Source: a virus
Taxonomy: Duplodnaviria; Heunggongvirae; Uroviricota; Caudoviricetes
Length of the DNA stretch: 64,000 bases
IMG/VR virus record: IMGVR_UViG_3300011727_000001
Location: 19,900 to 83,899 of that record
Strand: one strand, 5' to 3'
The notes under the pieces were generated by a model. The model was not told the DNA's origin. It saw only the letters and a list, made by a program, of their open reading frames with translations, and did no database searches. The translations under genes were made by a program, and so were the position numbers. Positions 6,576 to 61,255 of this stretch are shown here, piece after piece (within the stretch, counting starts at the first letter, position 1; each line of letters opens with the position of its first letter).

Positions 6576-6687
6576 ACCAGTAGACGTGTGCTTTAGTAAT
6601 CAGCAAATGAGTGACGTTCTTCAGCCCGATTGCTAACCAGATCAGTAAGAATACGGTTACGAGAATAGAAAAACCTGTAGGTGTCAT
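6517..6687 (-). CDS. Small membrane peptide (~57 aa, one TM)
   Basis: MTPTGFSILVTVFLLIWLAIGLKN.... Overlaps neighbouring genes at both ends. Below the 60-aa cutoff of the ORF track. Confidence 0.3.
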
Positions 6688-6800
6688 TCGTCATCTCCAT
6701 TTCGCTTCTTCAAAACTTTGAATTCGAGATAAGCGACGAAGAGAATTATACCGACGAACCAAATCGTCAGTTCCTGAATGGCGTAGCTAAAATCGGCCAT
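6684..6800 (-). CDS. Small membrane peptide (~38 aa, one TM)
   Basis: MADFSYAIQELTIWFVGIILFVAYLEFKVLKK. Its start overlaps the stop of the upstream ORF (ATGGCCGATTTTAG). Confidence 0.3.
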   Translation of the reverse strand: MADFSYAIQELTIWFVGIILFVAYLEFKVLKKRNGDDE

Positions 6801-8089: not shown

Positions 8090-8779
8090 TTATGATCTTT
8101 GATCAATATATGCGACAAAGGCATCCGCACCTTTCTGCCCCGTCTCATCTTCAATACGGGACATGAAATCGCGAATGATGCGTGATTGAGAGATGGATAC
8201 ACGTTTGAAACCGAGCGCATCAGCGACCGGCGCCGCAGTATCATCAACCTCTTCAGTTTTTTGAATATTAGCCTGCTGCTGAGCCTCAACCGCCTCACTA
8301 ATATTTTCTACGAAGAAATCATCATTGATTTCACCGAGGTCTGCAGTTGAAAAATCCAGCTCTTTTTCATCAAAACCAAGCGTGGTCAGATCGATATCTG
8401 TTTCCGCCAACCGGCGCAGTTCGTCTTGAATGAGAGCCATATCGTAAGATTGGCCCGTCACTCGGTTATCTGCCAAACGAAGTGCGTCGGCTTGGTCTTT
8501 GGTTAGGTCAGAACGAACAATAACCGGCACACGTTTACGACCGAGTTTGATGGCGGCCAGACGACGGCCATGACCTGCGATGATCTCGCCGTTTGTCCAA
8601 ATGACAATAGGCTGTGTCCAGCCATAGGTCAGAATAGAGTTTGCCAGTTTCTCGACTTCACCTTCAGGGTGATTTTTCGCATTAAGCGCATATGGAACGA
8701 GCTTATCGACATCCCATAGCTCAATTTTGGGCTGATCACTCATCATAGGTCTTTCTATAAATATCCATAAGTTCTTCAC
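8090..8779 (-). CDS. ParB-like nuclease domain protein 1; start probably at MMSDQ near 8746
   Basis: ParB N-terminal box GHGRRLAA, plus conserved ParB/Srx-like surroundings. Confidence 0.6.
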   Translation of the reverse strand: MKNLWIFIERPMMSDQPKIELWDVDKLVPYALNAKNHPEGEVEKLANSILTYGWTQPIVIWTNGEIIAGHGRRLAAIKLGRKRVPVIVRSDLTKDQADALRLADNRVTGQSYDMALIQDELRRLAETDIDLTTLGFDEKELDFSTADLGEINDDFFVENISEAVEAQQQANIQKTEEVDDTAAPVADALGFKRVSISQSRIIRDFMSRIEDETGQKGADAFVAYIDQRS

Positions 8780-8905: not shown

Positions 8906-9634
8906 TCACTCGGCGATCTCCGCCAATGCCGCATCAAGTTCTTTGTCGGTGATCTGGTCTTGGAGCCCTTTCACATCGAACTGATCAATCAGAAGATGAA
9001 CCAAGGCGTCACCGGCGTTTGTAAGATCATCAGCATCAGTGAAGGATTGGGCTTTTTGCGTTCGAGCGATCAAAGCGGTCAGCCGCTCTGCGTCACGCAG
9101 GGATAGTTTAAAGCGCATTACCGTATGAGTTTTGGGCGCCTTGGCGGCCGGAGGTTCAGGCGCCTCCTCAATCTCCGACGTTTCGAAATTCCCGTCAATT
9201 TCCAGATCGTCGAGCGCTATATTAACACTTGAGAAGATTGTTGTGAGATCCTCGTCCCCATAAGGAAGGAAGCTTTGCAGTTCGTTTGCATCACCCATGC
9301 TTTTAAGAAGTTCGGCAAAGCTCAAGGTGTCATCGGCGCCGTAACGAGCATTATCGAGAACCGAAATCTCTTTGGCGCGCTTATCATCAATCGGCCCCAG
9401 ATTTACGACTGGAATTTCAGAAAGTCCGAGTTTAACGGCTGCCTGCCATCGATGCTCGCCGCCGATAATCTCCAGCACACCATCAACTTCTCGAACAACA
9501 ACAGGCTTGAATAGCCCGTTTCGTTTAATCGACTCCTCAAGTTTCGCTTCATTATCAGGCGACACGAAATTCGTGTTCCAGGAGTTAGCCTGAAGCTTTT
9601 GAGGGGCAATATTGAGCAATTGTGGTTGCGGCAA
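8906..9634 (-). CDS. ParB-like nuclease domain protein 2
   Basis: ParB box GGEHRWQAA. 242 aa. Acidic C-terminal half. Confidence 0.6.
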   Translation of the reverse strand: MPQPQLLNIAPQKLQANSWNTNFVSPDNEAKLEESIKRNGLFKPVVVREVDGVLEIIGGEHRWQAAVKLGLSEIPVVNLGPIDDKRAKEISVLDNARYGADDTLSFAELLKSMGDANELQSFLPYGDEDLTTIFSSVNIALDDLEIDGNFETSEIEEAPEPPAAKAPKTHTVMRFKLSLRDAERLTALIARTQKAQSFTDADDLTNAGDALVHLLIDQFDVKGLQDQITDKELDAALAEIAE

Positions 9635-12715: not shown

Positions 12716-13375
12716 ATGAGCGAATTAGTGATCGCGTGCCTATCCCAGAAGGGCGGCGTAGGTAAATCTACCCTCGCTCGTTTGATCGCCAGAACTTATG
12801 CTTCTGCCGGCTGGCGCGTAAAAATAGCTGACTTCAATACCAAACAGCTCACCTCTGTCGATTGGGTGGGCATGAGAATGTCTACCGATATGGTGCCGGA
12901 GATTGCGGCGGAGCCATATACCTCGGTCAAGGGTTTCAAGCGCGAGCCGTTTGATTTGATCGTTGCCGATGGCAAGCCTGATAGTGATAACTCCAGTCTG
13001 GATATCGCTAAGGCCGCGCAGCTGGTGATTATTCCAACCGGTTTGGCTTTGGACGATCTTAAACCCCAAATCCTATTCGCGAACGAACTGGTTTCAAAAG
13101 GCGTTGACCGCAAGCGGATCTTAATCGTCCTGAATAAAATCACCGAAAGCACAACTGCTGTTCAAGAGGCGCGCGAATATCTGCGGTCAGCTGGGTATCA
13201 GATCGCGGAAAACGACCTTACTGCAAAGACCGGCTATCAGATGGCGCAGAATATCGGCCGGTCGGTAGCTGAAACGAATTTCCAATCTCTGAACGAGCGC
13301 GCCGATGAACTGGCCGCAGAAATTGTCCAGAAGATGAACGAATTATCGGAGGCCGCAAATGAGCAAGGCAAGTAA
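12716..13375 (+). CDS. parA: ParA/MinD-family partition ATPase
   Basis: Deviant Walker A LSQKGGVGKST. 219 aa. Confidence 0.8.
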   Translation: MSELVIACLSQKGGVGKSTLARLIARTYASAGWRVKIADFNTKQLTSVDWVGMRMSTDMVPEIAAEPYTSVKGFKREPFDLIVADGKPDSDNSSLDIAKAAQLVIIPTGLALDDLKPQILFANELVSKGVDRKRILIVLNKITESTTAVQEAREYLRSAGYQIAENDLTAKTGYQMAQNIGRSVAETNFQSLNERADELAAEIVQKMNELSEAANEQGK

Positions 13376-13616
13376 TCCAACCAAAGCCCCTGTGCCAAAG
13401 CCAGCCCGTTCGCTCAAAATGAGCTTTATGGGAGCCGCTGTAGCCCCGACAACTCCTGCAAGCAATATGACCGAAAAGCTGAAGGATATGAGCTTTAAAG
13501 TCGATCCGGAGTTTCACCGTCGCTACAAATCAGCGGCGGCGCTTAATGGCGTTCAAATGAAGGATATCCTTGAACAAAGCTTTGAACTCTGGCTGGAAAA
13601 GCAGAATTCAAAATGA
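13359..13616 (+). CDS. ParG-like small DNA-binding partner (putative ribbon-helix-helix C-terminus)
   Basis: 85 aa. Overlaps the ParA stop. Disordered basic N-terminus and structured C-terminus, typical of ParG/RHH centromere-binding proteins. Confidence 0.4.
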   Translation: MSKASNPTKAPVPKPARSLKMSFMGAAVAPTTPASNMTEKLKDMSFKVDPEFHRRYKSAAALNGVQMKDILEQSFELWLEKQNSK

Positions 13617-13730
13617 GGAGGCGCCCGTTACAGGGCGCTTTCGCTTTTTAGCGATAAGGCTAAAGGCCGAAATCGCGAAAACAATCATGGCAATCGAGAA
13701 GATGGCGTGCGTTACAATAACTTCAGTCAT
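13608..13730 (-). CDS. Small TM peptide (~40 aa), translationally coupled to the HslV-like gene
   Basis: MTEVIVTHAIFSIAMIVFAISAFSLIAKKRKR.... Its ATG overlaps the HslV-like stop (TATGACTGA). Confidence 0.3.
   Translation of the reverse strand: MTEVIVTHAIFSIAMIVFAISAFSLIAKKRKRPVTGASSF
13619..13649 (+). terminator. Rho-independent terminator ending the ParA/ParG operon
   Basis: GCGCCC-gttaca-GGGCGC followed by TTTCGCTTTTT. Confidence 0.6.
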
Positions 13731-19861: not shown

Positions 19862-20112
19862 TATTCGTTCTCCGGAGTGAAAATCGGACTTTCAGTAAAA
19901 TTGGCATCCTGTTCCGCGATACCTGTCGGATCAAAGATGTCACAGAACAAACCAATGGCGTCTTGCACAAATTGAGGCGCTTTCTCCAGGTCGTGAGCCT
20001 GAACGAACCAATCTGTGAAGGCTTTAATTTGCGCAACATCCTCTTTTCCGATTAAGTCACGCACGGCTTTGTAGTGGTCGATCGTCGCCTGGGTTTCTGC
20101 CGATATAGCCAT
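19861..20112 (-). CDS. Hypothetical protein
   Basis: 83 aa, acidic. Confidence 0.35.
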   Translation of the reverse strand: MAISAETQATIDHYKAVRDLIGKEDVAQIKAFTDWFVQAHDLEKAPQFVQDAIGLFCDIFDPTGIAEQDANFTESPIFTPENE

Positions 20113-24943: not shown

Positions 24944-25588
24944 AACGCTCTAGCCGAATAGAGCTTCCTTGGGTTTTCGGGTATTGCTACTAAACCTGCT
25001 CATTCGTCAGGAGTTTGCGCACCGTCGGCGTAACTGAAACTGGCGTGTTTAACCGGAGTATCACCTCTCCGCAGTCGGCCCATTTGCGCGGTTGGTCTAC
25101 TGCTACGTCTTTCCACTTCGAGCTGATATGGCGCCATCTATGCCAATCCTATGGCGTCGAAACCCTCGCGGTATTCGATCAGCTTCTCGTTCGTCCATTC
25201 GGACAAATACAAAGTCGGATTCTACTGAGGGAGAGCCGATATCCCGGTGAAGTTTTCTTTAATGTCGTTATCACCCTGACCGCGTTTGCCGCTCGACACT
25301 TCTCCTGATTGATCAGATCAGGGGCTGAGACTTCAGCCAAAGAACTAATTAATTTCGTGCCGAGGTGAGGAGTTGAACCTCAAGTCTTTTCCTTCATGCG
25401 TCATGACTGCCCTCCAAAATCGACTTTCCTCTTTAAAGCCCACGCTTCTCAACTTGGCCCCATACCGCGAATACTGAACGGTCGAGTTAGGAACCCCGGC
25501 ATATGTGCGGATCTCTCTCCGCTTGTCACGATTTCACTCGTCGCCGGAGGCGCGACCTCCAGGTGCCTGCTTGGCTTACTGTGAAGCC

Positions 25589-25708
25589 TTATTTCACGAG
25601 CTTTTCATTCCGGAAGGGTTCGTAACCTCGTCCCCATGCGACGACATATGCAAAGGCGCCGAGGGTCAAAATCCCTGCAAGGGAGAGAAGAAAATAGGTT
25701 CCAAACAT
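25589..25708 (-). CDS. Small TM peptide (39 aa)
   Basis: MFGTYFLLSLAGILTLGAFAYVVAWGRGYEPF.... RBS GAGG. Promoter-like motif upstream. Confidence 0.3.
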   Translation of the reverse strand: MFGTYFLLSLAGILTLGAFAYVVAWGRGYEPFRNEKLVK

Positions 25709-25740
25709 TCACACCTCATTCGTTCGTTTACGAGAAATTA

Positions 25741-25772
25741 TTAACTCACTGCTTACTTATTGTTTATAGCAA
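25741..25772 (-). promoter_or_regulatory. Promoter-like motif
   Basis: TTAACTCACTGCTTACTTATTGTTTATAGCAA. Confidence 0.45.
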
Positions 25773-25805
25773 TGCGAACGGAGGGTTAAAATAGGTTTCT
25801 TTCAA

Positions 25806-26399
25806 TTAAGAATGGTATTTAGCTTTAAATCTATCAAAATCCGGATCGGTCTCTTTGAGGTGTGCATACAAAGCATAATTCACACGACAATGGGTTCCGG
25901 GCGTAAGTGCGCGGCGAGGGGTATAAGTTGCTGTTTCACGATTTTCAATATTGATAAGATTAGCGTCTAAGAGGGCGTGAAATTCAGGGTATTCATCGGT
26001 TAGTTCTGGGGAGAGAAATCTTCCGCTTGGCTTTACCACATACTCGCACATTAACCGCTTCGATCCATCGCTAAGACGATCTAAGTTTTCCAGTAGCATT
26101 TGAGAAACTAACTTATATTTTGTAGACTTTCTTTTCTTTTCCGCTCGCGCTTTGCTTACCTCTGCGAGCCATGCGTAGGTGTAAAAAAATATACCCCAAA
26201 TTATAAGCGCTGATGAAAATGCAAATACAATGTAAATGATAGGAAGAAAATAAGAACCAAACTCTTTCATATTTACAAAAGTAGAGTAGTCCAACAGTAT
26301 AAGTATTGCAGCCGAAACGGCGCCTATAAAACCATATTTAAATGGTTTTTCGACAATCTTATCGCTAGTATTTAGCAATTCATTGGGATTAATTATCAT
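25806..26399 (-). CDS. Membrane protein, paralogue A (N-terminal two TM segments plus cytoplasmic domain with a PSGRFLSPE motif)
   Basis: 197 aa. Shares the KPSGRFLSPELTDEYPEF block with the adjacent ORF. AT-rich DNA. Confidence 0.45.
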   Translation of the reverse strand: MIINPNELLNTSDKIVEKPFKYGFIGAVSAAILILLDYSTFVNMKEFGSYFLPIIYIVFAFSSALIIWGIFFYTYAWLAEVSKARAEKKRKSTKYKLVSQMLLENLDRLSDGSKRLMCEYVVKPSGRFLSPELTDEYPEFHALLDANLINIENRETATYTPRRALTPGTHCRVNYALYAHLKETDPDFDRFKAKYHS

Positions 26400-26411
26400 A
26401 GCGTTCCGCGC

Positions 26412-26963
26412 TCACTTCTTTTTATTATTGTAGTAAATGCGATTTACGCGGTATGGTTTTCCTGCAAAGGATGAGTGTATTGTATATATTCCATATGCTG
26501 AATCGCTTTCGCTTTCCTCACCTTCCACAAGATCAGCGGTGCATAATTCATCAAACGCATCACCCCATTCAGGTGAAAGAAATCTACCGCTTGGCTCCTT
26601 CATGTAAAGTTTAAGCATAGATTTTGCATTAGGGCTTAATCTATTAGCGTTTTCTATGAGGCGTTTAAGCTCCTCTTTATTCGCGGATCTGCTACTCCAC
26701 TTGGAGTAAATCCAAGTGAGCGATATTTTAAAAACGTCTCTTAGGGCGTATAAAATTCCAAAACCTATTAAAAAACACGACATTACGCCCAAAATACGCG
26801 CTAACGGCAGAACCCAACTGCCTATGTCATTGGCGTCTATTCCTCCGCTACTATGTAGGGTTTCCACGGTAAGTGCTAAAATAAATAAAACAAAGCCGTA
26901 TATGAGCGGTTTTGAAAGCATAGATTCGATTGTATTCAGCCAATCTTTAGGGTTCGCGCTCAT
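26412..26963 (-). CDS. Membrane protein, paralogue B
   Basis: 183 aa. EPSGRFLSPEWGDAFDEL block and the same TM topology as paralogue A. Confidence 0.45.
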   Translation of the reverse strand: MSANPKDWLNTIESMLSKPLIYGFVLFILALTVETLHSSGGIDANDIGSWVLPLARILGVMSCFLIGFGILYALRDVFKISLTWIYSKWSSRSANKEELKRLIENANRLSPNAKSMLKLYMKEPSGRFLSPEWGDAFDELCTADLVEGEESESDSAYGIYTIHSSFAGKPYRVNRIYYNNKKK

Positions 26964-27031
26964 ATCTGATCCATTATCGCCGATGTTCTATACTCATTAC
27001 CGATCAGCAACTTTTAAGTAAAGCCGCAGAT

Positions 27032-27379
27032 TTAGTAATCCGCGGCATAAAACACTGACATAATACGAACAGTTACATTAGGATCATCCGGATGCTCGGA
27101 GCCGGAGCGTTCATCAAGGGCGTAATAGTCAATCTTGAACATATAACGCTCGCCATCGACGGTAAAAACACCAAAGTCATGCTCATGATGCGGATCATCG
27201 CCATCTGGGAAGTCGTTAAAGGCTTTCATAGCGTCAACGATGGAAAAAAGCTTCTCAGCCGTTGGCATCTCGGTTGCGAGGGAGCCGGCGACCACGACAC
27301 GAGCGTTCAGACCAAATCCGGTCATGCGCAGTTGGTCGTTAAGCGCGCGGATGCGCAAGGTCTTTTCTTCGTCAGCCAT
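27032..27379 (-). CDS. Hypothetical acidic protein (start at MADEEK)
   Basis: ~115 aa. Confidence 0.35.
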   Translation of the reverse strand: MADEEKTLRIRALNDQLRMTGFGLNARVVVAGSLATEMPTAEKLFSIVDAMKAFNDFPDGDDPHHEHDFGVFTVDGERYMFKIDYYALDERSGSEHPDDPNVTVRIMSVFYAADY

Positions 27380-29718: not shown

Positions 29719-30073
29719 TTTTCAACTCCTTCAGCAATCGGCGAACATCAACATAAGTCCACTCTTTGCGGTATTTTGCAGGGCCGTAGTCGGTTTTGTT
29801 TAGCTCTATAGCAATCTCATGACCGTTTGCGTCCGCTTTTAGTCTGCGAACATTGACGATCACCGGTAGCAGAGCCGCTATCATCTCCTCGTGATATTTT
29901 CGGCGCGCTGCGTTCATCGCCGGAACAGCGGCGGCACCGCGCTCCTTAGGGGTCATAGGGCGACGAATAAGCACCATTCCGGGCGCAAGGTGTTCAATCA
30001 GGGTGGGATCGGCCGCCAAGGCTTGCTTGACGACCATCAGTGCCTTTCGCAGATCAATGTCGGATTGCATCAT
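29693..30073 (-). CDS. Hypothetical protein
   Basis: 126 aa. Confidence 0.35.
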   Translation of the reverse strand: MMQSDIDLRKALMVVKQALAADPTLIEHLAPGMVLIRRPMTPKERGAAAVPAMNAARRKYHEEMIAALLPVIVNVRRLKADANGHEIAIELNKTDYGPAKYRKEWTYVDVRRLLKELKIELEPTAP

Positions 30074-30377
30074 GCGCCTGCTCAGCGTCGATTACGCCGT
30101 TTGCGACATCGTAAAGGATCGCCATGAGTTGTTCATTGTTGAGGGCGATTGAGATAGCCATAAGTTTCTTACCTATCTCAATTTGTTTCAGCTCACGCTC
30201 ACCCCACTGTTCCGGATCGTTTAGAAGAGGCGAGAGCCCGGTTGAGAAAATTTCCGCTGTTCCATCAGCTCGAAGCACCACTCCGCAGTCACCTTCGCTA
30301 ATCAATGGCTTGTTTGATTCCGATTTTGCGGTTAGTGTAGTGAACAAACTGGGAACATTTGCACAAGGCATACGCAT
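30054..30377 (-). CDS. Hypothetical protein
   Basis: 107 aa. Confidence 0.35.
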   Translation of the reverse strand: MRMPCANVPSLFTTLTAKSESNKPLISEGDCGVVLRADGTAEIFSTGLSPLLNDPEQWGERELKQIEIGKKLMAISIALNNEQLMAILYDVANGVIDAEQAHDAIRH

Positions 30378-30565
30378 AAACTCCTGATATTGCTGTATTT
30401 TAATAAGTGTTCTTATTTTATTATAGCAAATTAAAATCGGGTCTCTGCGGAGATAATAATCGCGGAATTTGCACTGTAAGAATTGATTTTCCGGTCAAAG
30501 ATTAACGTGTTTGAGTTTTAAACAAGTTTTTAAGCTCATGTAAAAGTTTGGAGGTCGCTAAGTAA

Positions 30566-30778
30566 ATGCAGGAGCAGAAATTTGAAGGCGAAGTTAGCGC
30601 GCTTTGGATTACTATTATTGATGCCGTTGAAGGACATTTTGCAAGTCGCGGAATGACATTTTCGCGAGAGGCTTATTTAAATCAAGCCTCCGCGGATCAT
30701 GAACAAATGTGCCGAGAATTGCTGTTCTTCGGCACAGATACGTTTCCAACAGTATCGGAAAATGTGTTAGCGGCTTAA
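30566..30778 (+). CDS. Small hypothetical protein on the plus strand
   Basis: 70 aa. AT-rich upstream region (30380-30560). Confidence 0.3.
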   Translation: MQEQKFEGEVSALWITIIDAVEGHFASRGMTFSREAYLNQASADHEQMCRELLFFGTDTFPTVSENVLAA

Positions 30779-31029
30779 TTCGGCTGCGCTTCTAGCTCTT
30801 TAAGTGCTTTTGTGAGTTCAAAGTCACCCACGGTTGAACATACACGGCGCTCGAAAAGAATAATTTTACCATCTTCAGTATGGCGTGGGGGCGTAATGGT
30901 TTCGTTTAGAGCTTTAGCACGCTCGTCACATACATCAATCGGGGTGATAGATAACACTTTCGCCTCGACCGTAGGCTCTGCTCCGCCTCCAAGCATTTGA
31001 ATTAAAATCATTACGCCCGCTAACTTCAT
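30775..31029 (-). CDS. Small secreted protein (signal peptide)
   Basis: MKLAGVMILIQMLGGGAEP. Confidence 0.35.
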   Translation of the reverse strand: MKLAGVMILIQMLGGGAEPTVEAKVLSITPIDVCDERAKALNETITPPRHTEDGKIILFERRVCSTVGDFELTKALKELEAQPN

Positions 31030-33109: not shown

Positions 33110-33156
33110 GTCGCACTCCTTTTGATTTATCAGGGTAAGTAGCTGAGCTAAATAAA

Positions 33157-33187
33157 TTAACTCAGCGCTTACTTATTTTATAGCAAA
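33157..33187 (-). promoter_or_regulatory. Promoter-like motif
   Basis: TTAACTCAGCGCTTACTTATTTTATAGCAAAC. Confidence 0.45.
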
Positions 33188-33221: not shown

Positions 33222-34664
33222 TTATGCGACTTTTTGTTGGGTTGTTTCATTAAAGCCAAGGCGAAGATCCAGCGCGTAACCGGCCTCATCACTGCGTTTA
33301 CGAACGGCTTCGAAGCTTTCACCTTCATAGTGACCATTCATATAGATCACCTTCAGGGCGTTGGCGTCGATCTGCTCCGGCGTGGCTTCACTTTCTTTCA
33401 GAACCACACTGGTATTGCCATCGCGAAGAACGATCTGACGACCAGCCTTGGACGTCTTAGAGGGATCGGTCGCTGGCTTTTTCTGAATATCTTCCCAGCC
33501 TGCACCGGTAGAAATTGCGTTGGCTTTCATGGCGAAATTCAGATCGTTACGAGTATGGCTTTGCAGCAATCCGCCGCCCATACCAAATGCGATATTGTCG
33601 ATGGAGAAACCAGCTGCAGCCATTTCAACCATAAGATTAGCAATCGATTCCGCGTTCATACCGTCGCCTTGAATGACGCCGACTTTCGAGTTCAGAACGC
33701 GATGACCTTTGCTGTTCACGGTGCCGCCGAATTTATCCCAAAGGATTTGCAGCGTTTTGATTGGTGTAAGAACCGGGTCTCCCGAATCCGGACGCACAAT
33801 CAGTTTCCCGCCGATCTTCATGATCTTATCGCGCAGCTCGCCGCCGTAGATATTTTCCAGGGCGTTAAACAGATCATAGCTGTCTGAAACAACCGAGAAC
33901 ATACCGTCCCCAAAGGCGTCGATCATATTGCTATAAGCTTTCGCCTCGCCATCGCGACCCCAAGAGGTCATAGTCGAGTGCTCTGAGGCAGGGATCGAAT
34001 AACCGGCGCAGATATTCCGATCATTATAAATACGGCGAACCGCGAGAAGTCCTTCGATCGTATCTGTGCCTTGGAAGTTAATCAGGTGCGCCATTGCGCC
34101 CAGACCGGCAGATTCACCGCTCGATACACCGCGTCCGCCGAAGTCATGCAATTTGAACGGCAGACCGTCCAGGTTATCGCATGTAAGGCGCATCATTCCC
34201 CGGATCATCGCTTTGACGTGGAAAGAGGTTGTCGCAACAGAGGTAGGATACCAGATGGCGCGAAGCATTGCTGTTTCAACGAAGCTTGTCAGCCAAGGCA
34301 GATCAGGGTCAGTGTTGCGAACCTGAACCAGAGGCACGCTCTTTTCCACATAGCTGCCTTCTGGCAGCGATTGAATCTCCAACGGCAGGTAACCGTTGTG
34401 CTTCATCACAATGTGCTCCCAGCCAGCGCGATTGAACGGCAGACCGTGTGTCTTCATCAACGCTTCGGCTTCGTCAATCATTGATGGCGTGATCTGATGC
34501 ATCAGATAATCGCGAATGAAGGCGTGAATGCCGACAAACAGGACGCCGCCTGGCTGATCAGTTGGGCGGGATTCGATATACGAGGACATGAACTTTGTGT
34601 TCGGCGGCAGCTGGAGAAAATGCGAGTGCTTATAGCTATCACTCGCCAGAATGATATTCGTCAT
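33222..34664 (-). CDS. nadV: Nicotinamide phosphoribosyltransferase (NAMPT/NadV family)
   Basis: 480 aa. N-terminal NIILASDSYKHSHF...PPNT matches the NAMPT NILLATDSYK signature. Length fits. Confidence 0.8.
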   Translation of the reverse strand: MTNIILASDSYKHSHFLQLPPNTKFMSSYIESRPTDQPGGVLFVGIHAFIRDYLMHQITPSMIDEAEALMKTHGLPFNRAGWEHIVMKHNGYLPLEIQSLPEGSYVEKSVPLVQVRNTDPDLPWLTSFVETAMLRAIWYPTSVATTSFHVKAMIRGMMRLTCDNLDGLPFKLHDFGGRGVSSGESAGLGAMAHLINFQGTDTIEGLLAVRRIYNDRNICAGYSIPASEHSTMTSWGRDGEAKAYSNMIDAFGDGMFSVVSDSYDLFNALENIYGGELRDKIMKIGGKLIVRPDSGDPVLTPIKTLQILWDKFGGTVNSKGHRVLNSKVGVIQGDGMNAESIANLMVEMAAAGFSIDNIAFGMGGGLLQSHTRNDLNFAMKANAISTGAGWEDIQKKPATDPSKTSKAGRQIVLRDGNTSVVLKESEATPEQIDANALKVIYMNGHYEGESFEAVRKRSDEAGYALDLRLGFNETTQQKVA

Positions 34665-34673
34665 AGTAACCTC

Positions 34674-35702
34674 TTAGAGCAGGTTGGAGATGAGGGTGAA
34701 GTGATCTTCGAAGAACCGGTCTGAACCGAGATCATCGAAGTAATACCAATCCGCGTGAGCGGCATCGTCGCCGCCGGCGACAGCGGGAAGATCAATGTGG
34801 TTCGGGATGACAAACATATACATCATCGAAACCACACGACCGCGCAGTGACCGTGACGGATTATCGGCAAGCTCGTGGCTGGCCAGATTATGTTCGATGT
34901 TGGACAGATCGAGACCGGTTTCTTCCTTCAGCTCACGCTTAGCGGCTTCAAGAAAAGTTTCACCGCTTTCAACGAAACCGCCGGGTGTCGCGAGCAATCC
35001 GCGTCCAATTGCTTTACCGCGTGTCACAAGCAGGATCTTACCGCGATGAACAACGAGAGCGTCTGCGGCGAGAAATGGCCCTGTGCCGTATTCTTCACGG
35101 TTACGCTGATATGTATCGACCTCAGCCACAAGGTTTTTGAACGCATCGCTGAAAGTGAATGCTTTCATCCAAGGCAAGAGGCGAGCGGAGACTGCATCTT
35201 GCGGCAGGCGCGGCAGGCGGCGCAAATATTCGATCCGAATATCGGAAGCGTTAATGGTGCCATGCTGGGCTGTCAGCTGAACGGAGTTCCATTCGGGAAA
35301 CATATTCAGATAGTAGGACGAGGCATCTTTGCCGTATCCGGTTAACGCAATCGTTACGTCGCGCAGACCATGATTACGAAAACCACCGCCGTTGAGATGA
35401 TCCAAGACAGCTTCGTTAACGGTTTTGCGCAGTTCATTCGCCCAACGATAGTCCGGCTGGTAATCGCGAAGAGGGGCGATGATAATGCGGCCGGACATTA
35501 CTTCGTGACGGAACACGCTTTCGATCATTTCTTTTCGTTCATCAAAGGTGAACGGGTTGATCGGCGTGCGAGCCTGATAGGCAGAGCCGACAATCAGAAT
35601 GAGAGTTTCAACCTTGTTCAAGGCTTCGCGAATAACGTGCTCATGCCCGATATGCAGTGGCTGGAAGCGCCCAATGTAAACGCCGTAATTGTAGTCAGCC
35701 AT
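34674..35702 (-). CDS. Bifunctional NMN adenylyltransferase (NadM-type) with C-terminal Nudix hydrolase
   Basis: N-terminal GRFQPLHIGH nucleotidyltransferase motif. C-terminal Nudix box GGFVESGETFLEAAKRELKEETGL. Confidence 0.8.
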   Translation of the reverse strand: MADYNYGVYIGRFQPLHIGHEHVIREALNKVETLILIVGSAYQARTPINPFTFDERKEMIESVFRHEVMSGRIIIAPLRDYQPDYRWANELRKTVNEAVLDHLNGGGFRNHGLRDVTIALTGYGKDASSYYLNMFPEWNSVQLTAQHGTINASDIRIEYLRRLPRLPQDAVSARLLPWMKAFTFSDAFKNLVAEVDTYQRNREEYGTGPFLAADALVVHRGKILLVTRGKAIGRGLLATPGGFVESGETFLEAAKRELKEETGLDLSNIEHNLASHELADNPSRSLRGRVVSMMYMFVIPNHIDLPAVAGGDDAAHADWYYFDDLGSDRFFEDHFTLISNLL

Positions 35703-44758: not shown

Positions 44759-44782
44759 CATAACTAAGTAATTACTTACCTT
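44759..44782 (-). promoter_or_regulatory. Promoter-like motif preceded by a 9-bp inverted repeat
   Basis: CATAACTAAGTAATTACTTACC. IR GATCGTGGG / CCCACGATC at 44730-44759. Confidence 0.45.
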
Positions 44783-46145
44783 CTCGCGCACGACGAAGGG
44801 CGCGAAGTTTCTTACCGCATACACCGTAGAGCTTTTCGGCCTGTCGTTGCGAGATTTCACCAGCTTCAACACGCGTGTAAGCCTCACGATACTTCTCCGG
44901 AATTTCAGTCGGATCAGACTTTGCTTTCGGAGCAGGAGTGGCCGCCTTTACTGGCTTCTTGGCTGGCTTTTTCTTTTTCACAACCGCCTGTTTAGCTTTC
45001 TTCTCAGCCACCGCTTCTGCGACAACCTTTTTCACCTCTTTTACCGAAACACTTTCTTCAGGTTTCTTGTCATCGAGCGCAGCAACAGGTTTCGCATCCT
45101 TCTTGATTTCAGCCACCTTCGGCAGGCTGTTGCCCACAACTTCAACCTTCGGGGTGATAGAAAGATCGGTGCCTTTAGGGCCGCCGATAATAACTGCCTC
45201 AATCACTCCGATATGATCACCAGCAATAACATTGGCGAGGATTTGGGCTGATGGGGCGTGAGACGTCATAGGTTTGTTATTAATCAGCAGCGAATATGCT
45301 TCTTGAGGAAGCTTAGCCACGATGTGATAAGCAGCGGCGCGCATCTTATCCGGCTCGTTATATGGAACCGCGATCACATCTTCCGGTGCAACTTTAATCA
45401 GCGTGACCAGATCGCCGCCAAATCCGCGAATATAGCCGCGGCGCGCGACGTGCAAACCGGTCGAGCACTCAACACGACGGCTATCATCAACCATCTTTTC
45501 TGCCATAGACACGCGAGAGCCAACGCGTTGTGGCACATTCCGACTGTGGCAATCGTGAAAGAGATCGGCGGCTTTGTCGCGATATTTCAGGATCTTGTAA
45601 GCAACGATCGAGCCATCATCGGCAATCGGCAAATCGCCGCGTTCCATGAAGTTCAAAAGTTCCTGCACAGAATGCTTGCGTTTATCGATAACTTTGGAGA
45701 GACGTTCCAGAAACTTCTCAAGACCTTTGGAGTTCTGAAACGCTGCATATTCAAGCTGTTTTTCGAGCTTTTCGACGCCGGGAATTTCAACACCATTCAC
45801 CACAGCGACAGTTGTTTCCGCTTCGGGATTGACCGTTGGAGCGACGTAATGACGATCCGTTTCCTGATTGCCATTACCGAGATTGAAGTGCGAGGCAAAA
45901 TCTTTGAATTTGCGTTTGATGAAGCGAATGAAACCGCCGGACTGTTTCTCGATTTTGCTTTCGAGCGAATAATTATCCAGGTCGATCTCAACGGTTTTGT
46001 GCTTGGCGAGTGGGCGCACGATGTCGTCCATGATCGACTTGGTGCGCCAGCCAGACGCCGGCAGATTAATCTCCTTGCCTTCAGAGGTGTAGAGGGTGAC
46101 GCCATCCTTACTTGTGATGGCGGATACAATGCGAACCTTACTCAT
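44772..46145 (-). CDS. rIIB: rIIB-like protein
   Basis: Block STGLHVARRGYIRGFGG...VAPEDVIAVPYNEPDKMRAAAYHIV aligns with T4 rIIB SRGLHVCSKSYIRHFGS...VHPRDVVSIPIDYNDAKMRTCQYEV. It lies directly downstream of the rIIA-like gene. Lys/Ala-rich C-terminal tail. Confidence 0.7.
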   Translation of the reverse strand: MSKVRIVSAITSKDGVTLYTSEGKEINLPASGWRTKSIMDDIVRPLAKHKTVEIDLDNYSLESKIEKQSGGFIRFIKRKFKDFASHFNLGNGNQETDRHYVAPTVNPEAETTVAVVNGVEIPGVEKLEKQLEYAAFQNSKGLEKFLERLSKVIDKRKHSVQELLNFMERGDLPIADDGSIVAYKILKYRDKAADLFHDCHSRNVPQRVGSRVSMAEKMVDDSRRVECSTGLHVARRGYIRGFGGDLVTLIKVAPEDVIAVPYNEPDKMRAAAYHIVAKLPQEAYSLLINNKPMTSHAPSAQILANVIAGDHIGVIEAVIIGGPKGTDLSITPKVEVVGNSLPKVAEIKKDAKPVAALDDKKPEESVSVKEVKKVVAEAVAEKKAKQAVVKKKKPAKKPVKAATPAPKAKSDPTEIPEKYREAYTRVEAGEISQRQAEKLYGVCGKKLRALRRAREGK

Positions 46146-48610
46146 GCTGCTTCCTTTTCAACTACTGCGATTTTGTTGATGGTGATTGGCGCAGGAGCCG
46201 GAACTGGCTCTGCGTCAGGAATTGCTTTGATTTTGGGAGTTTGGGCGGCAAGGGTTGCCGCTTTGGCTTCAGCTTTCGCTTGTGCCTGATATTTTCGTTG
46301 AAGAGCCTTCACAACGATCATAAAGTCGTCCAGCGATGCGGCGTCATCAACATTTGCGTAAGGAAATGACTTTGCAAAGACGCTCAGATAGGCAAATTTC
46401 CGGTTCGCCTCTCTACGCTCCAAACGCAAATATCCGTAAACACTTTGCGCGGCATTAATCACCGCCTCCAGCATTTCTGAAATCCGGGCGTGTTCGCCCT
46501 GATCTTGTTTTTTGCGCTGATATTGCCCGTGCAAGCGCTCTTTCAGCCTTTGAGTGCAAAACAATGCCTTTTCAAAAACTTCGGTAAGTTTAGTTTTAGG
46601 CGGGAAAAACCATTCAGCAGCCGATCGATGATGTATAACGGATTGAACGAGCTGCGACGGTTCGCGATATCCGACGTTCTCAGCGACAAATCCCTGAGCC
46701 ATCATGACCGCGTAAAGCACCTCTTTCTTCTTGATATTTTCATGAAGAAACTCCGCCATTGCGGCATAAAGATTAACCGAACCACGCGCCTTTAACGCCG
46801 CTTCATCTTTGACATCACATGCAATCGCGACATCGCCGAAATAATTTGTAACCGTCTTCGCATAGTTCGTAACCGGCCCCACGCCATAACTGTGATACCA
46901 GTCATTTACCTGGCGAAGATAATATCGTGCTGTGACGAGAGCTGGCTCGCCCTGCTCTTTTTTATTCGGTTTCAAATTCATCAAGCTGATGAAACGAGCG
47001 TCTTCCGGCGTTTTCTTTGCGCGTTTAGGCGGTGCGGTGATCGCAACCTCTTCAACGCTGATGCCATAGCGTTGAGCTTCCTGTTTGATTTTAGCAATCA
47101 TGCCGTGTTGGCTGCGCTTCAAAACAAATGTCATGTAGCTATGAGCGTTGCCATATTCCGGATCTTTAATTTTCGCGCGTTTCCGTTCATCCGCAATAGT
47201 CGAAATCACGTCCCGTTGATTAAAACTGATATAGAGCTTTGGCATCACCTCGGCATCGGATTGATCTACCGTATCGATGCGCTTCGGCTTCGCCAGTCCA
47301 GCCCAACTGCCGACTTCGAAAGAAAATAAATTTCTATGCAAAGCCAATTTATTTGCAATGCGAAGATACAGGCGGCTTTCGACTTTAAAATCATCAATTC
47401 CACGATCCCTCGCGCGGCGGAAAACGCGACGATAATCAGGGCGAAGTTTCGCAAACTCACGTCGAACGGCCTTAACTTGGTTGCGAACCAAACGCTCAAT
47501 ATGAAAAACGGCCAGTTTCGCTGCAATGTCCTCGATCCGAACAACTGCAGCTTTTGGGCTATCATCAACCTGACGCGTTATTTCGCGATAGTCCTGGTAG
47601 TTAATTCTGCGATTCCAAATTCGCTTCTCGTTGGTCGAGATCACCGCGGCGGTATCCTTGATAATCGTCTTGGCCACCGGCTTCATGCTTTGTTCGAGAA
47701 CGCGATGGGCGCGCTGCATCAAACCAAGCAGAGTATTTTTAGTCTTATCTGTATAAGACAGGGACTCACGAGAGGGTGTTACGCCGACCGAATTAGCGGC
47801 CGCCATTACAATTAAACGATATTGATGCGGAATAAGGTTTCCGATTTTAACCAGACTGTCATGAATCTCTTTATCTGTGGTGGAGACCGGATAAAGAACG
47901 GTGCCATAAAGACAATAAACATGGCTTTCATTCATTCCGGCTCTTGGTGCCAGAATGAAATTATGCGTGGCGTTCTCGTAGTCGAAACGGTTGATCAAAT
48001 CGCCATTCAGATTGGCGACCATTCCGCCCTGCATAACTACAGAGCGAATAATCTCCTCAAACTCGGCGCGATCTTTTTCGTTTTTCAACGGAATAGAGAC
48101 GGTGACGCCGGTTTCTTCACTCGGCACTTTTACCATCTGTCGGAAGTCAGGTTTACCATCCGTCTCAGCGCCGCCGCGCGAGATCGCAAACACATGACGA
48201 AAACCACCGTTACAAGATGTCACGGAGAAGTGGTCGGAATAAGCAAATGGGGCTTTCGAACCGAGGCCGAAACCGCCGGTCTGACTGGAGTCCTGGATCT
48301 TAGTGGTGCCACCGTAGCGACAATAGATCGTGCCGATCTTGTCAGCGGGAATACCTGGGCCAAAGTCCTTAATGACCAGCTCTGTGTCAGTTAGGGTGAT
48401 TTCTACCGGAATATCACGCTTATTGGACACGATGTGCGCGTCATAGGCGTTACATACAACCTCGCGCACAACGGCGCGCTTCTTATCACGGTAAAGAGTG
48501 TCAGAAAGAACGGTAAAGAATTCTGCGGATTCTGACATTGTGAATGCGTGGGCTTTGCCACCGCCAATAATGGCGTGAGTATCGAGCCCTGCTATCTGCG
48601 ATACTTCCAT
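46142..48610 (-). CDS. rIIA: rIIA-like protein (N-terminal GHKL/HATPase_c domain)
   Basis: N-box REVVCNAYDAH (ExxxNAxDA) and G1 box KDFGPGIP. 822 aa. Adjacent to the rIIB homologue. Confidence 0.7.
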   Translation of the reverse strand: MEVSQIAGLDTHAIIGGGKAHAFTMSESAEFFTVLSDTLYRDKKRAVVREVVCNAYDAHIVSNKRDIPVEITLTDTELVIKDFGPGIPADKIGTIYCRYGGTTKIQDSSQTGGFGLGSKAPFAYSDHFSVTSCNGGFRHVFAISRGGAETDGKPDFRQMVKVPSEETGVTVSIPLKNEKDRAEFEEIIRSVVMQGGMVANLNGDLINRFDYENATHNFILAPRAGMNESHVYCLYGTVLYPVSTTDKEIHDSLVKIGNLIPHQYRLIVMAAANSVGVTPSRESLSYTDKTKNTLLGLMQRAHRVLEQSMKPVAKTIIKDTAAVISTNEKRIWNRRINYQDYREITRQVDDSPKAAVVRIEDIAAKLAVFHIERLVRNQVKAVRREFAKLRPDYRRVFRRARDRGIDDFKVESRLYLRIANKLALHRNLFSFEVGSWAGLAKPKRIDTVDQSDAEVMPKLYISFNQRDVISTIADERKRAKIKDPEYGNAHSYMTFVLKRSQHGMIAKIKQEAQRYGISVEEVAITAPPKRAKKTPEDARFISLMNLKPNKKEQGEPALVTARYYLRQVNDWYHSYGVGPVTNYAKTVTNYFGDVAIACDVKDEAALKARGSVNLYAAMAEFLHENIKKKEVLYAVMMAQGFVAENVGYREPSQLVQSVIHHRSAAEWFFPPKTKLTEVFEKALFCTQRLKERLHGQYQRKKQDQGEHARISEMLEAVINAAQSVYGYLRLERREANRKFAYLSVFAKSFPYANVDDAASLDDFMIVVKALQRKYQAQAKAEAKAATLAAQTPKIKAIPDAEPVPAPAPITINKIAVVEKEAA

Positions 48611-48635: not shown

Positions 48636-48666
48636 TAACTAAGTGATTACTTATTGTTTATAGCAG
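48636..48666 (-). promoter_or_regulatory. Promoter-like motif upstream of rIIA, followed upstream by a 12-bp perfect hairpin (48676-48704)
   Basis: CTAAGTGATTACTTATTGTTTATAGCAGACG. Hairpin ATACTCGCGGAT / ATCCGCGAGTAT. Confidence 0.5.
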
Positions 48667-61226: not shown

Positions 61227-61255
61227 CACTAAGTGATTACTTATTATTTATAGCG
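61227..61255 (-). promoter_or_regulatory. Promoter-like motif (closest to consensus)
   Basis: CTAAGTGATTACTTATTATTTATAGCGC. The reverse complement is followed by GAGAGAGAAAG and the ATG. Confidence 0.5.

Follow-up and report, generated by a model that had tools for sequence, protein, structure and literature searches.

The stretch of DNA analysed here, hereafter the window, comprises 64,000 nucleotides (nt) of the IMG/VR virus record IMGVR_UViG_3300011727_000001 (Caudoviricetes; positions 19,900 to 83,899 of that record). It carries a tandem pair of small membrane-protein genes, up183 and dn197, whose products profile comparison places in a remote branch of the SieB superfamily. We propose by analogy that the pair is a divergent SieB-like cassette that excludes rival phages through an abortive type of exclusion, a reading that we hold with roughly even confidence. 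SieB was described about fifty years ago and its working is still poorly understood; when P22-like phages superinfect, it halts the synthesis of macromolecules in the cell partway through their lytic cycle, while P22 itself is spared (PMC10883804). Exclusion by SieB is already known, and what appears to be new here is a divergent, duplicated and hypervariable SieB-like cassette in large rhizobial phages.

Remote homology to SieB

An earlier note, made from the letters of the window alone, had stated that the domain shared by the two proteins matches nothing recognisable. That statement did not hold. SieB (PF14163) is the only Pfam family that recurs among the relatives of the pair, being matched by 9 of 10 close members and by 14 of the 30 family members (best E 1.9e-5), and no family member carries a PF14163 annotation. 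For profile-profile comparison, a SieB profile was assembled from 18 curated PF14163 proteins, seeded from lambda SieB and Rac-type SieB; frameshifted entries and spurious N-terminal extensions were taken out of this set before hhalign was run. The profile of the 30-sequence family matched SieB at a probability of 94.3% (E 1e-7, score 52.9), with 93 columns aligning positions 79–176 to SieB positions 70–162. Similar results were obtained with a 10-sequence core (90%, E 1.6e-6; 82–191 to SieB 74–174) and with the dn paralogues alone (91.8%, E 7.5e-7), the latter over positions 103–158 only, with the basic linker excluded. The alignment between family and SieB spans the linker and the cytoplasmic domain, not the membrane helices. 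As controls, 20 column-shuffled SieB profiles scored 10–16 (E 0.11–0.69) and a reversed profile scored 14.4. A comparison of the 10-sequence family with the single lambda SieB sequence gave a probability of 1.8%, which is too weak to use.

Reciprocal ranking with hidden Markov models (HMMs) agrees with the profile comparison. The ranking pool of 1,640 sequences, of which 1,611 were decoys, consisted of open reading frame (ORF) segments of at least 60 amino acids (aa) from the window and all loci, together with the family. In this pool, the SieB HMM placed about 20 family members right after the true SieBs and before any decoy, and the family HMM in turn placed 7 SieBs ahead of the first decoy. 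The cytoplasmic domains of the family and of SieB also share the pattern L[ST]xxxxxxLxxxLxxGx(n)PxxxxLxxxxL. Canonical SieBs were not reached by an exhaustive HMMER search from the family across 1.84 billion representatives, and NCBIfam returned only scattered membrane-helix noise, with nothing above threshold. On these profile comparisons, the up/dn family is a remote branch of the SieB superfamily that lies outside Pfam SieB by the threshold of that family.

A hypervariable gene pair and its distribution

The two adjacent ORFs of 197 and 183 aa described in the earlier note are present on the minus strand (Table 1), and their paralogy was confirmed by BLASTP, with 30% identity from end to end (E 7e-23). 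The block that had been written as (K/E)PSGRFLSPE occurs in both proteins, as EPSGRFLSPE in up183 and KPSGRFLSPE in dn197, with the PSGRF codons at nt 26580–26594 and nt 26016–26030, respectively. It is also visible in the DNA as a 29-nt repeat of 86% identity. The N-terminus of up183 carries an NPxDW motif, and we place the start of this gene at 26963 because the N-terminal motif is conserved across the family; the Joint Genome Institute (JGI) gene call starts 14 codons further downstream.

The AT-richness of the pair, another claim of that note, is pronounced, and composition is not uniform with the neighbours. The GC contents of the two genes, 0.384 and 0.402, are the lowest among the 50 genes of the window and compare with 0.502 +/- 0.022 for the 48 others (z −5.4 and −4.5). 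GC content at third codon positions is likewise low, at 0.34 and 0.38 against 0.52 +/- 0.05 (z −3.9 and −3.0), so that the AT bias is not merely a by-product of amino-acid content. Across the pair, GC drops from about 0.50 to 0.365–0.40, and the 1158-bp pair region is essentially the lowest-GC stretch of its size in the 64 kb. The dip is also present at the orthologous pairs of four related phages, and distant homologues in other replicons lie 6–9 points of GC under their flanks.

The cassette is the variable element in an otherwise well-conserved neighbourhood. When the window was compared with the four related phages (five phages in all), the flanking proteins were 72–100% identical and mostly above 85% (DUF3768 86–98%, HD 93–100%, Band-7 92–93%), whereas up was 39–88% and dn 46–65% identical. 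Against L006, the genome closest to the window, the flanking DUF3768 and HD genes show nonsynonymous divergence (dN) of 0.000–0.007, synonymous divergence (dS) of 0.03–0.13 and a dN/dS ratio (omega) of 0.00–0.06. For up, the corresponding values are 0.062, 0.115 and 0.54; a flank-like dS with a much higher omega indicates faster protein change in place. For dn, the values of 0.46, 2.4 and 0.20 indicate a different, long-diverged allele in the same slot, that is, a replaced allele. The alleles are also discordant, the window sharing its up allele with L006 and having its nearest dn allele in L001, and this disagreement between the up and dn trees points to recombination. Raised omega together with allele exchange would be expected of genes in conflict with other phages.

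The limits of the cassette can be read from the same five phages. Upstream of up183, a terminator-like hairpin is nearly invariant, and conservation collapses immediately 3′ of it; this hairpin is the left boundary of the variable cassette. On the right side, conservation resumes at the last dn codons and continues through the intergenic segment that follows. Within the cassette, the junction between the two genes varies. The window has a 12-nt spacer (26400–26411) between the two same-strand genes, and in the window and L006, where up and dn lie 12–13 nt apart, the spacer holds a small GC hairpin, AGCGTTCCGCGCT. In three relatives the genes overlap, by 4 nt in L001 and L003 (6001–6004 in each) and by 1 nt in L002 (6001). 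The variable junction is consistent with recombination at this point, and the overlaps of 1–4 nt hint at translational coupling. From strand and spacing, up and dn are predicted to form one co-transcribed unit.

The earlier description of the AT-rich region as an insert is not supported in the sense of a recent insertion. The tandem pair is syntenic in close relatives and AT-rich in all of them: in four related genomes it fills the same slot, flanked by genes for DUF3768 and HD_4 proteins, and the gene for a 39-aa peptide comes next in three of the four. In a neighbour-joining tree the up and dn clades are sisters, which indicates one duplication before the five phages diverged. Recent horizontal insertion was rejected on both grounds, the shared slot and the old duplication.

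The family is small and scattered. A word-indexed search of 5.8 billion proteins turned up no more than four relatives for one protein and two for the other, each on a contig of 65–110 kb and mostly of about 110 kb. A HMMER profile search of the 1.84 billion cluster representatives found 25 proteins at E up to 0.001, all of 169–222 aa and with the same layout. Where the source of members is known, it is Rhizobium or Shinella, the latter including one member in a metagenome-assembled genome. Single copies occur in several settings. L010, a 119-kb contig of the bacterial isolate assembly GCA_007679885.1, is gene-for-gene similar in style and has one copy, while in the related 76-kb phage L015 the slot between DUF3768 and HD holds unrelated small ORFs and a single member lies about 6 kb away. 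Other members are found on a 41-kb replicon of Rhizobium rhizoryzae that encodes CI-like and Cro-like repressors as well as an integrase and ParA (L013), beside host genes at the edge of a prophage, on the strand opposite to terminase and tail genes (L016), and as a lone copy among LysR-regulated metabolic genes in the chromosome of Rhizobium sp. BK377 (L011). Such a distribution marks a mobile accessory gene rather than a core function of the phage, and several of these settings are ones in which accessory exclusion genes are commonly met. No match was obtained in tblastn searches with both paralogues and the distant family members P0012 and P0018 against phages or with P0018 against PLSDB plasmids, and a search for related loci in IMG/VR and GTDB species genomes found none.

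A moron, as Hendrix defined it, is an added gene of atypical composition that comes with a promoter and a terminator of its own. The pair resembles morons in its AT-rich, atypical composition, its sharp boundaries, its slot between conserved genes and the different places that the family occupies in different phages. It differs from them in that no dedicated promoter was identified for it, the only terminator-like hairpin lies upstream, where it overlaps the DUF3768 stop, a promoter-like motif lies downstream, with neither clearly a part of the pair, and the cassette is old and fixed in this phage clade.

Predicted architecture and proposed function

The two membrane helices and the cytoplasmic domain that had been described for each protein are supported by prediction. 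A hydropathy scan gives two hydrophobic segments in each (Table 1), and AlphaFold2, run on full-length dn197 with a 6-sequence alignment, predicts a helical hairpin (residues 5–38 and 51–107) that leads into a compact domain of about 100 aa, at a mean predicted local distance difference test (pLDDT) score of 80.2. After its second transmembrane helix (TM2), dn197 is strongly basic, with 8 K/R against 2 D/E in 25 aa. Such a stretch puts the C-terminus inside if the positive-inside rule is applied, and with two membrane helices the N-terminus should then be cytoplasmic too. An additional C-terminal helix (DPDFxxFxAKYxS) is present in dn197 and absent from up183. Both paralogues keep the membrane hairpin and every family-wide motif. 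The best-conserved part of the family is the cytoplasmic domain, not the short periplasmic loop; it includes a near-invariant GRF..P loop (PSGRF in most members) and an ENxxRLS helix.

Folded alone, the C-terminal 102 residues of dn197 reached a pLDDT of 91.5 and a predicted template modelling score of 0.83 in AlphaFold2. The modelled order of elements, helix-helix-strand-helix-strand-wing-strand-helix-helix, looks typical of winged-helix-like domains. The named matches of this domain in BFVD are mostly helix-turn-helix (HTH) or winged-HTH proteins, all of them non-significant (E at least 0.11). Whole-chain structure searches were dominated by the helical hairpin, and a profile search of PDB sequences found no related solved structure.

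Several features align the pair with SieB. The proteins are of similar length (183–197 aa, against 179–192 aa for SieB), they share with SieB the order of a membrane region at the N-terminus, a strongly basic linker and a cytoplasmic domain of about 100 aa, and, like SieB, they are encoded by accessory genes of mobile phage genomes. At the same hydropathy threshold, lambda-type SieB shows only one segment plus the basic linker, and each paralogue shows two. The pair further differs from SieB in that its family appears to be rhizobial rather than enterobacterial, and in being present as two full-length tandem copies in a non-lambdoid phage of about 110 kb.

We infer from this likeness an exclusion function, an abortive mechanism and roles for the two copies. 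Each product would sit in the inner membrane as a hairpin whose two ends lie in the cytoplasm, and a basic helix would lead from TM2 into the C-terminal domain. The pair would stop the development of a rival phage in a cell that is already occupied, whether during a lytic infection or while the phage persists in a possible plasmid-like carrier state. Following the SieB analogy, the cytoplasmic domain, with its GRF..P loop and ENxxRLS helix, may sense a product of the rival phage, upon which the membrane hairpin would shut down membrane-dependent macromolecular synthesis. The second copy might add a further recognition specificity, or might temper the first as Esc tempers SieB in P22.

The sieB gene encodes both SieB and its inhibitor Esc, with an antisense RNA acting as the switch that determines which of them is made (PMC10002423, PMC12197685). 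The pair is comparable in that two related polypeptides come from one locus, and P22 offers a precedent for one copy moderating the other or conferring self-immunity on it. According to Ranade and Poteete (1993), Esc is reportedly an in-frame, N-terminally shortened product of the same gene; the pair, in contrast, consists of two separate genes, both with the hairpin. A more specific version of the proposal, which we regard as doubtful, is that one paralogue is a SieB-like abortive effector and the other a full-length, membrane-anchored, Esc-like partner that confers self-immunity or trigger specificity, with allele shuffling serving as a form of kin discrimination among phages. If true, shuffled and diverged alleles in near-identical phages would decide who co-infects with, or excludes, whom.

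A number of observations weigh against a SieB-like exclusion cassette. Against the Pfam SieB model, dn197 scores 14.5 bits (E 0.027) and up183 13.5 bits (E 0.056), the gathering threshold being 26, and the up paralogues alone reach a probability of only 14% in hhalign (E 0.002; 82–151 to SieB 74–143). PADLOC had no model matching either protein at E up to 1, PHROGs gave only weak matches to families of unknown function (best E 6.5e-4), and a structure search of BFVD with the C-terminal domain gave no significant match (E 0.11 at best), none of the 50 highest-ranked models being a SieB. Genomic context also differs. Canonical sieB is expressed from the prophage in lambdoid phages and lies on the strand opposite to its neighbours, whereas the pair is co-directional with flanking early-type genes of a large, possibly virulent phage (rIIA/rIIB, ribonucleotide reductase, SbcCD). 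Canonical sieB is further characterised by its own promoter, an internal Esc product and the antisense RNA sas; for the pair, no own promoter was identified. Finally, with the working of SieB itself poorly understood, the mechanistic analogy is tentative.

The inner-membrane hairpin could also belong to an entry-blocking exclusion system of the T4 Imm/Sp or P22 SieA kind, in which the hairpins prevent translocation of rival DNA and the cytoplasmic domain is accessory. Many of the differences between the window and L006 lie in the membrane region, as expected if it contacts fast-evolving ejection proteins. Like those systems, the pair encodes inner-membrane proteins of a phage, which exclude rivals in the known cases and putatively do so here; however, Imm, Sp and SieA act on DNA entry and have no winged-helix-like cytoplasmic domain. 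The Pfam and PHROGs searches revealed no similarity to the SieA, Imm or Sp families, SieB, which acts after entry, is the only family to which homology can be detected, and conservation is highest in the cytoplasmic domain (PSGRF, ENxxRLS) rather than in the short periplasmic loop. We consider an entry block unlikely. T4 Imm and Sp are examples of exclusion genes carried by virulent phages as well.

The winged-helix-like C-terminal domain, with its high pLDDT and its mostly HTH-type named matches, would in turn suit membrane-tethered nucleic-acid-binding or regulatory proteins that serve the phage's own cycle, as a DNA anchor like phi29 p16.7 or as transcription regulators, and the pair does lie among same-strand early-type genes. 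A core function, however, should be conserved like its neighbours, whereas the pair is the most variable locus of the region. The gene is missing from this slot in the 76-kb L015, single copies occur at a prophage edge and in a chromosome, and every structure match falls short of significance (E 0.11 or worse). Such a role has, in our estimate, a slim chance of being correct.

An anti-defence or host-takeover module is similarly improbable. Such a module would neutralise a membrane-based abortive system of the host or alter membrane physiology, much as T4 rII counters the RexAB abortive system of lambda. The AT-rich, hypervariable and mobile character of the cassette would fit this role, as would its position in accessory DNA of a phage whose genome also includes rIIA/rIIB and NAD-salvage genes. 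In L015, moreover, a gene with a weak match to the Pfam family Acb2_Tad1_hairpin, an anti-defence sponge (13316–13669), is located about 6 kb downstream of the single family member. However, the proteins have no similarity to known anti-defence proteins, the homologues at a prophage edge, on a temperate phage-plasmid-like replicon and in a chromosome fit host-protecting genes better, and homology to SieB points the opposite way. The earlier note had listed superinfection exclusion, abortive infection and anti-defence as possible roles of the pair; the SieB homology and the conflict-like evolution favour the first two, while anti-defence, with no PADLOC match, gained no specific support. A holin/antiholin-type lysis-timing module, suggested by two similar two-helix membrane proteins with both ends inside, as in class II holins, and by a membrane peptide gene next door, is very improbable and was rejected, since the proteins, at 183 and 197 aa, exceed the size of class II holins (about 65–100 aa) and contain a folded cytoplasmic domain of about 100 aa, which is not characteristic of holins, no holin family was matched, the detectable homology is to SieB, and no endolysin, spanin or other lysis gene was found among the neighbours scanned.

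A divergent SieB-like cassette, if this is what the pair represents, would extend the SieB superfamily beyond the prophages of lambdoid enterobacterial phages to large rhizobial phages. The new branch offers a confidently predicted cytoplasmic domain and the sharply conserved PSGRF and ENxxRLS motifs as sites to mutate, and the natural allelic series in nearly isogenic phages provides material for mapping what the putative sensor recognises. An exclusion gene that behaves as a hypervariable, recombining cassette in a phage with rIIA/rIIB would also bear on the competition of soil and rhizosphere phages inside cells.

Genomic setting and further features

Products encoded in the window include a portal protein, a large terminase, a DNA helicase, rIIA/rIIB, ribonucleotide reductase and SbcCD-like nucleases, as well as an SPFH/Band-7 protein, an HD phosphohydrolase and a nicotinamide phosphoribosyltransferase (NAMPT) with a NadR/Nudix-like enzyme. 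The neighbours of the pair are DUF3768, a T4_Y16D-like protein and the HD phosphohydrolase, and are not lysis genes. No cultured phage is closely related to it; the nearest are Rhizobium phages of 115–122 kb such as B1VFA and RHEph10, with 35–40% amino-acid identity in rIIA, and megablast with the locus matched neither INPHARED phages nor complete E. coli genomes. The protein sequence of dn197 is found unchanged on a JGI contig of 110,579 bp. The window is part of an uncultured phage of about 110 kb, probably with a rhizobial host.

Table 1. Positions of the gene pair, its predicted domains and other features in the window
Feature	Position (nt)	Strand	Remarks
up183	26412–26963	minus	183 aa, upstream paralogue
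up183 TM1	about 26850–26906	minus	residues ~20–38; hydropathy scan
up183 TM2	about 26730–26804	minus	residues 54–78; hydropathy scan
up183 cytoplasmic domain	26415–26675	minus	predicted
dn197	25806–26399	minus	197 aa, downstream paralogue
dn197 TM1	26274–26330	minus	residues 24–42; hydropathy scan
dn197 TM2	26184–26240	minus	residues 54–72; hydropathy scan
dn197 cytoplasmic winged-helix-like domain	25809–26102	minus	predicted, after basic linker helix
GC-rich hairpin then T-rich tail, terminator-like	27023–27046	minus	overlaps stop of upstream DUF3768 gene
Conserved intergenic segment, right cassette boundary	25709–25805	minus	nearly invariant in five phages including L002
Promoter-like motif TATAAACAATAAGTAAGCAGTGAGTTAAT in this segment	25740–25768		core TATAAACAATAAGTAA at 25753–25768, before 39-aa peptide gene
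Further motif copy	48647–48662	minus	directly before rIIA
Further motif copy	61237–61252	minus	
Further motif copy	33156–33182		
Weaker motif copies	554, 14738, 17753, 51569, 54598, 54618		
39-aa single-helix membrane peptide gene	25589–25708	minus	ORF and hydrophobic segment
rIIA (822 aa) and rIIB (457 aa) homologues	44772–48610	minus	
ParA/MinD-like ATPase	12716–13375	plus	
Two ParB_N-domain proteins	8090–8779, 8906–9634	minus	

The ParA-like and ParB_N-domain genes, together with the occurrence of L010 in a bacterial isolate assembly, hint at a plasmid-like carrier or prophage state. Such a state would bear on when the SieB-like genes act.

The promoter motif and small membrane peptide that the earlier note had placed after the pair were both substantiated. 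The motif, TATAAAYAATAAGTAA(G/T)CA, recurs in intergenic DNA just 5′ of genes, other minus-strand genes among them, with 9 matches at up to 3 mismatches against 0.6 expected, and is probably a phage-specific promoter or regulatory site. The 39-aa peptide is 90–100% identical in L001, L003 and L006 with dN/dS of 0–0.10, and it had no PHROG match. In L002, the peptide gene is missing (around 6592–6700), while the upstream motif and the downstream conserved non-coding sequence are retained. The peptide is thus dispensable, and the pair does not require it as a partner; its gene, preceded by a promoter-like motif of its own, is probably a unit separate from the cassette. Within the AT-rich DNA of the pair itself, promoter- and terminator-like sites on the plus strand were not meaningfully above chance.

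Between the genes for the peptide and the HD phosphohydrolase lie 645 nt without a conserved ORF (24944–25588, minus strand). This gap is 96–99.8% identical at the DNA level in L001, L003 and L006, which makes it more conserved than the adjacent coding genes, and even in L004, which is more distant, the first ~360 nt hardly vary. Rfam gave nothing in the window or in the gap, and the predicted RNA fold of the gap is no more stable than that of shuffled sequence (z 0.13).

Elsewhere in the window, a nicotinamide adenine dinucleotide (NAD)-salvage pair is encoded at 33222–35702 (minus strand), consisting of the nicotinamide phosphoribosyltransferase (480 aa) and a cytidylyltransferase/Nudix NadR-like protein (342 aa). 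NAD-salvage modules are reported to offset NAD-depleting defences. The presence of both rIIA/rIIB and the up/dn pair would combine putative counter-exclusion and putative exclusion modules in one phage. A second AT-rich dip, at 30200–30800, has a GC content of about 0.40 and a strongly positive GC skew. In this region, a gap of about 190 nt (30378–30565) separates a lone plus-strand 70-aa ORF (30566–30778) from a minus-strand gene (30054–30377) and looks like a divergent promoter region.

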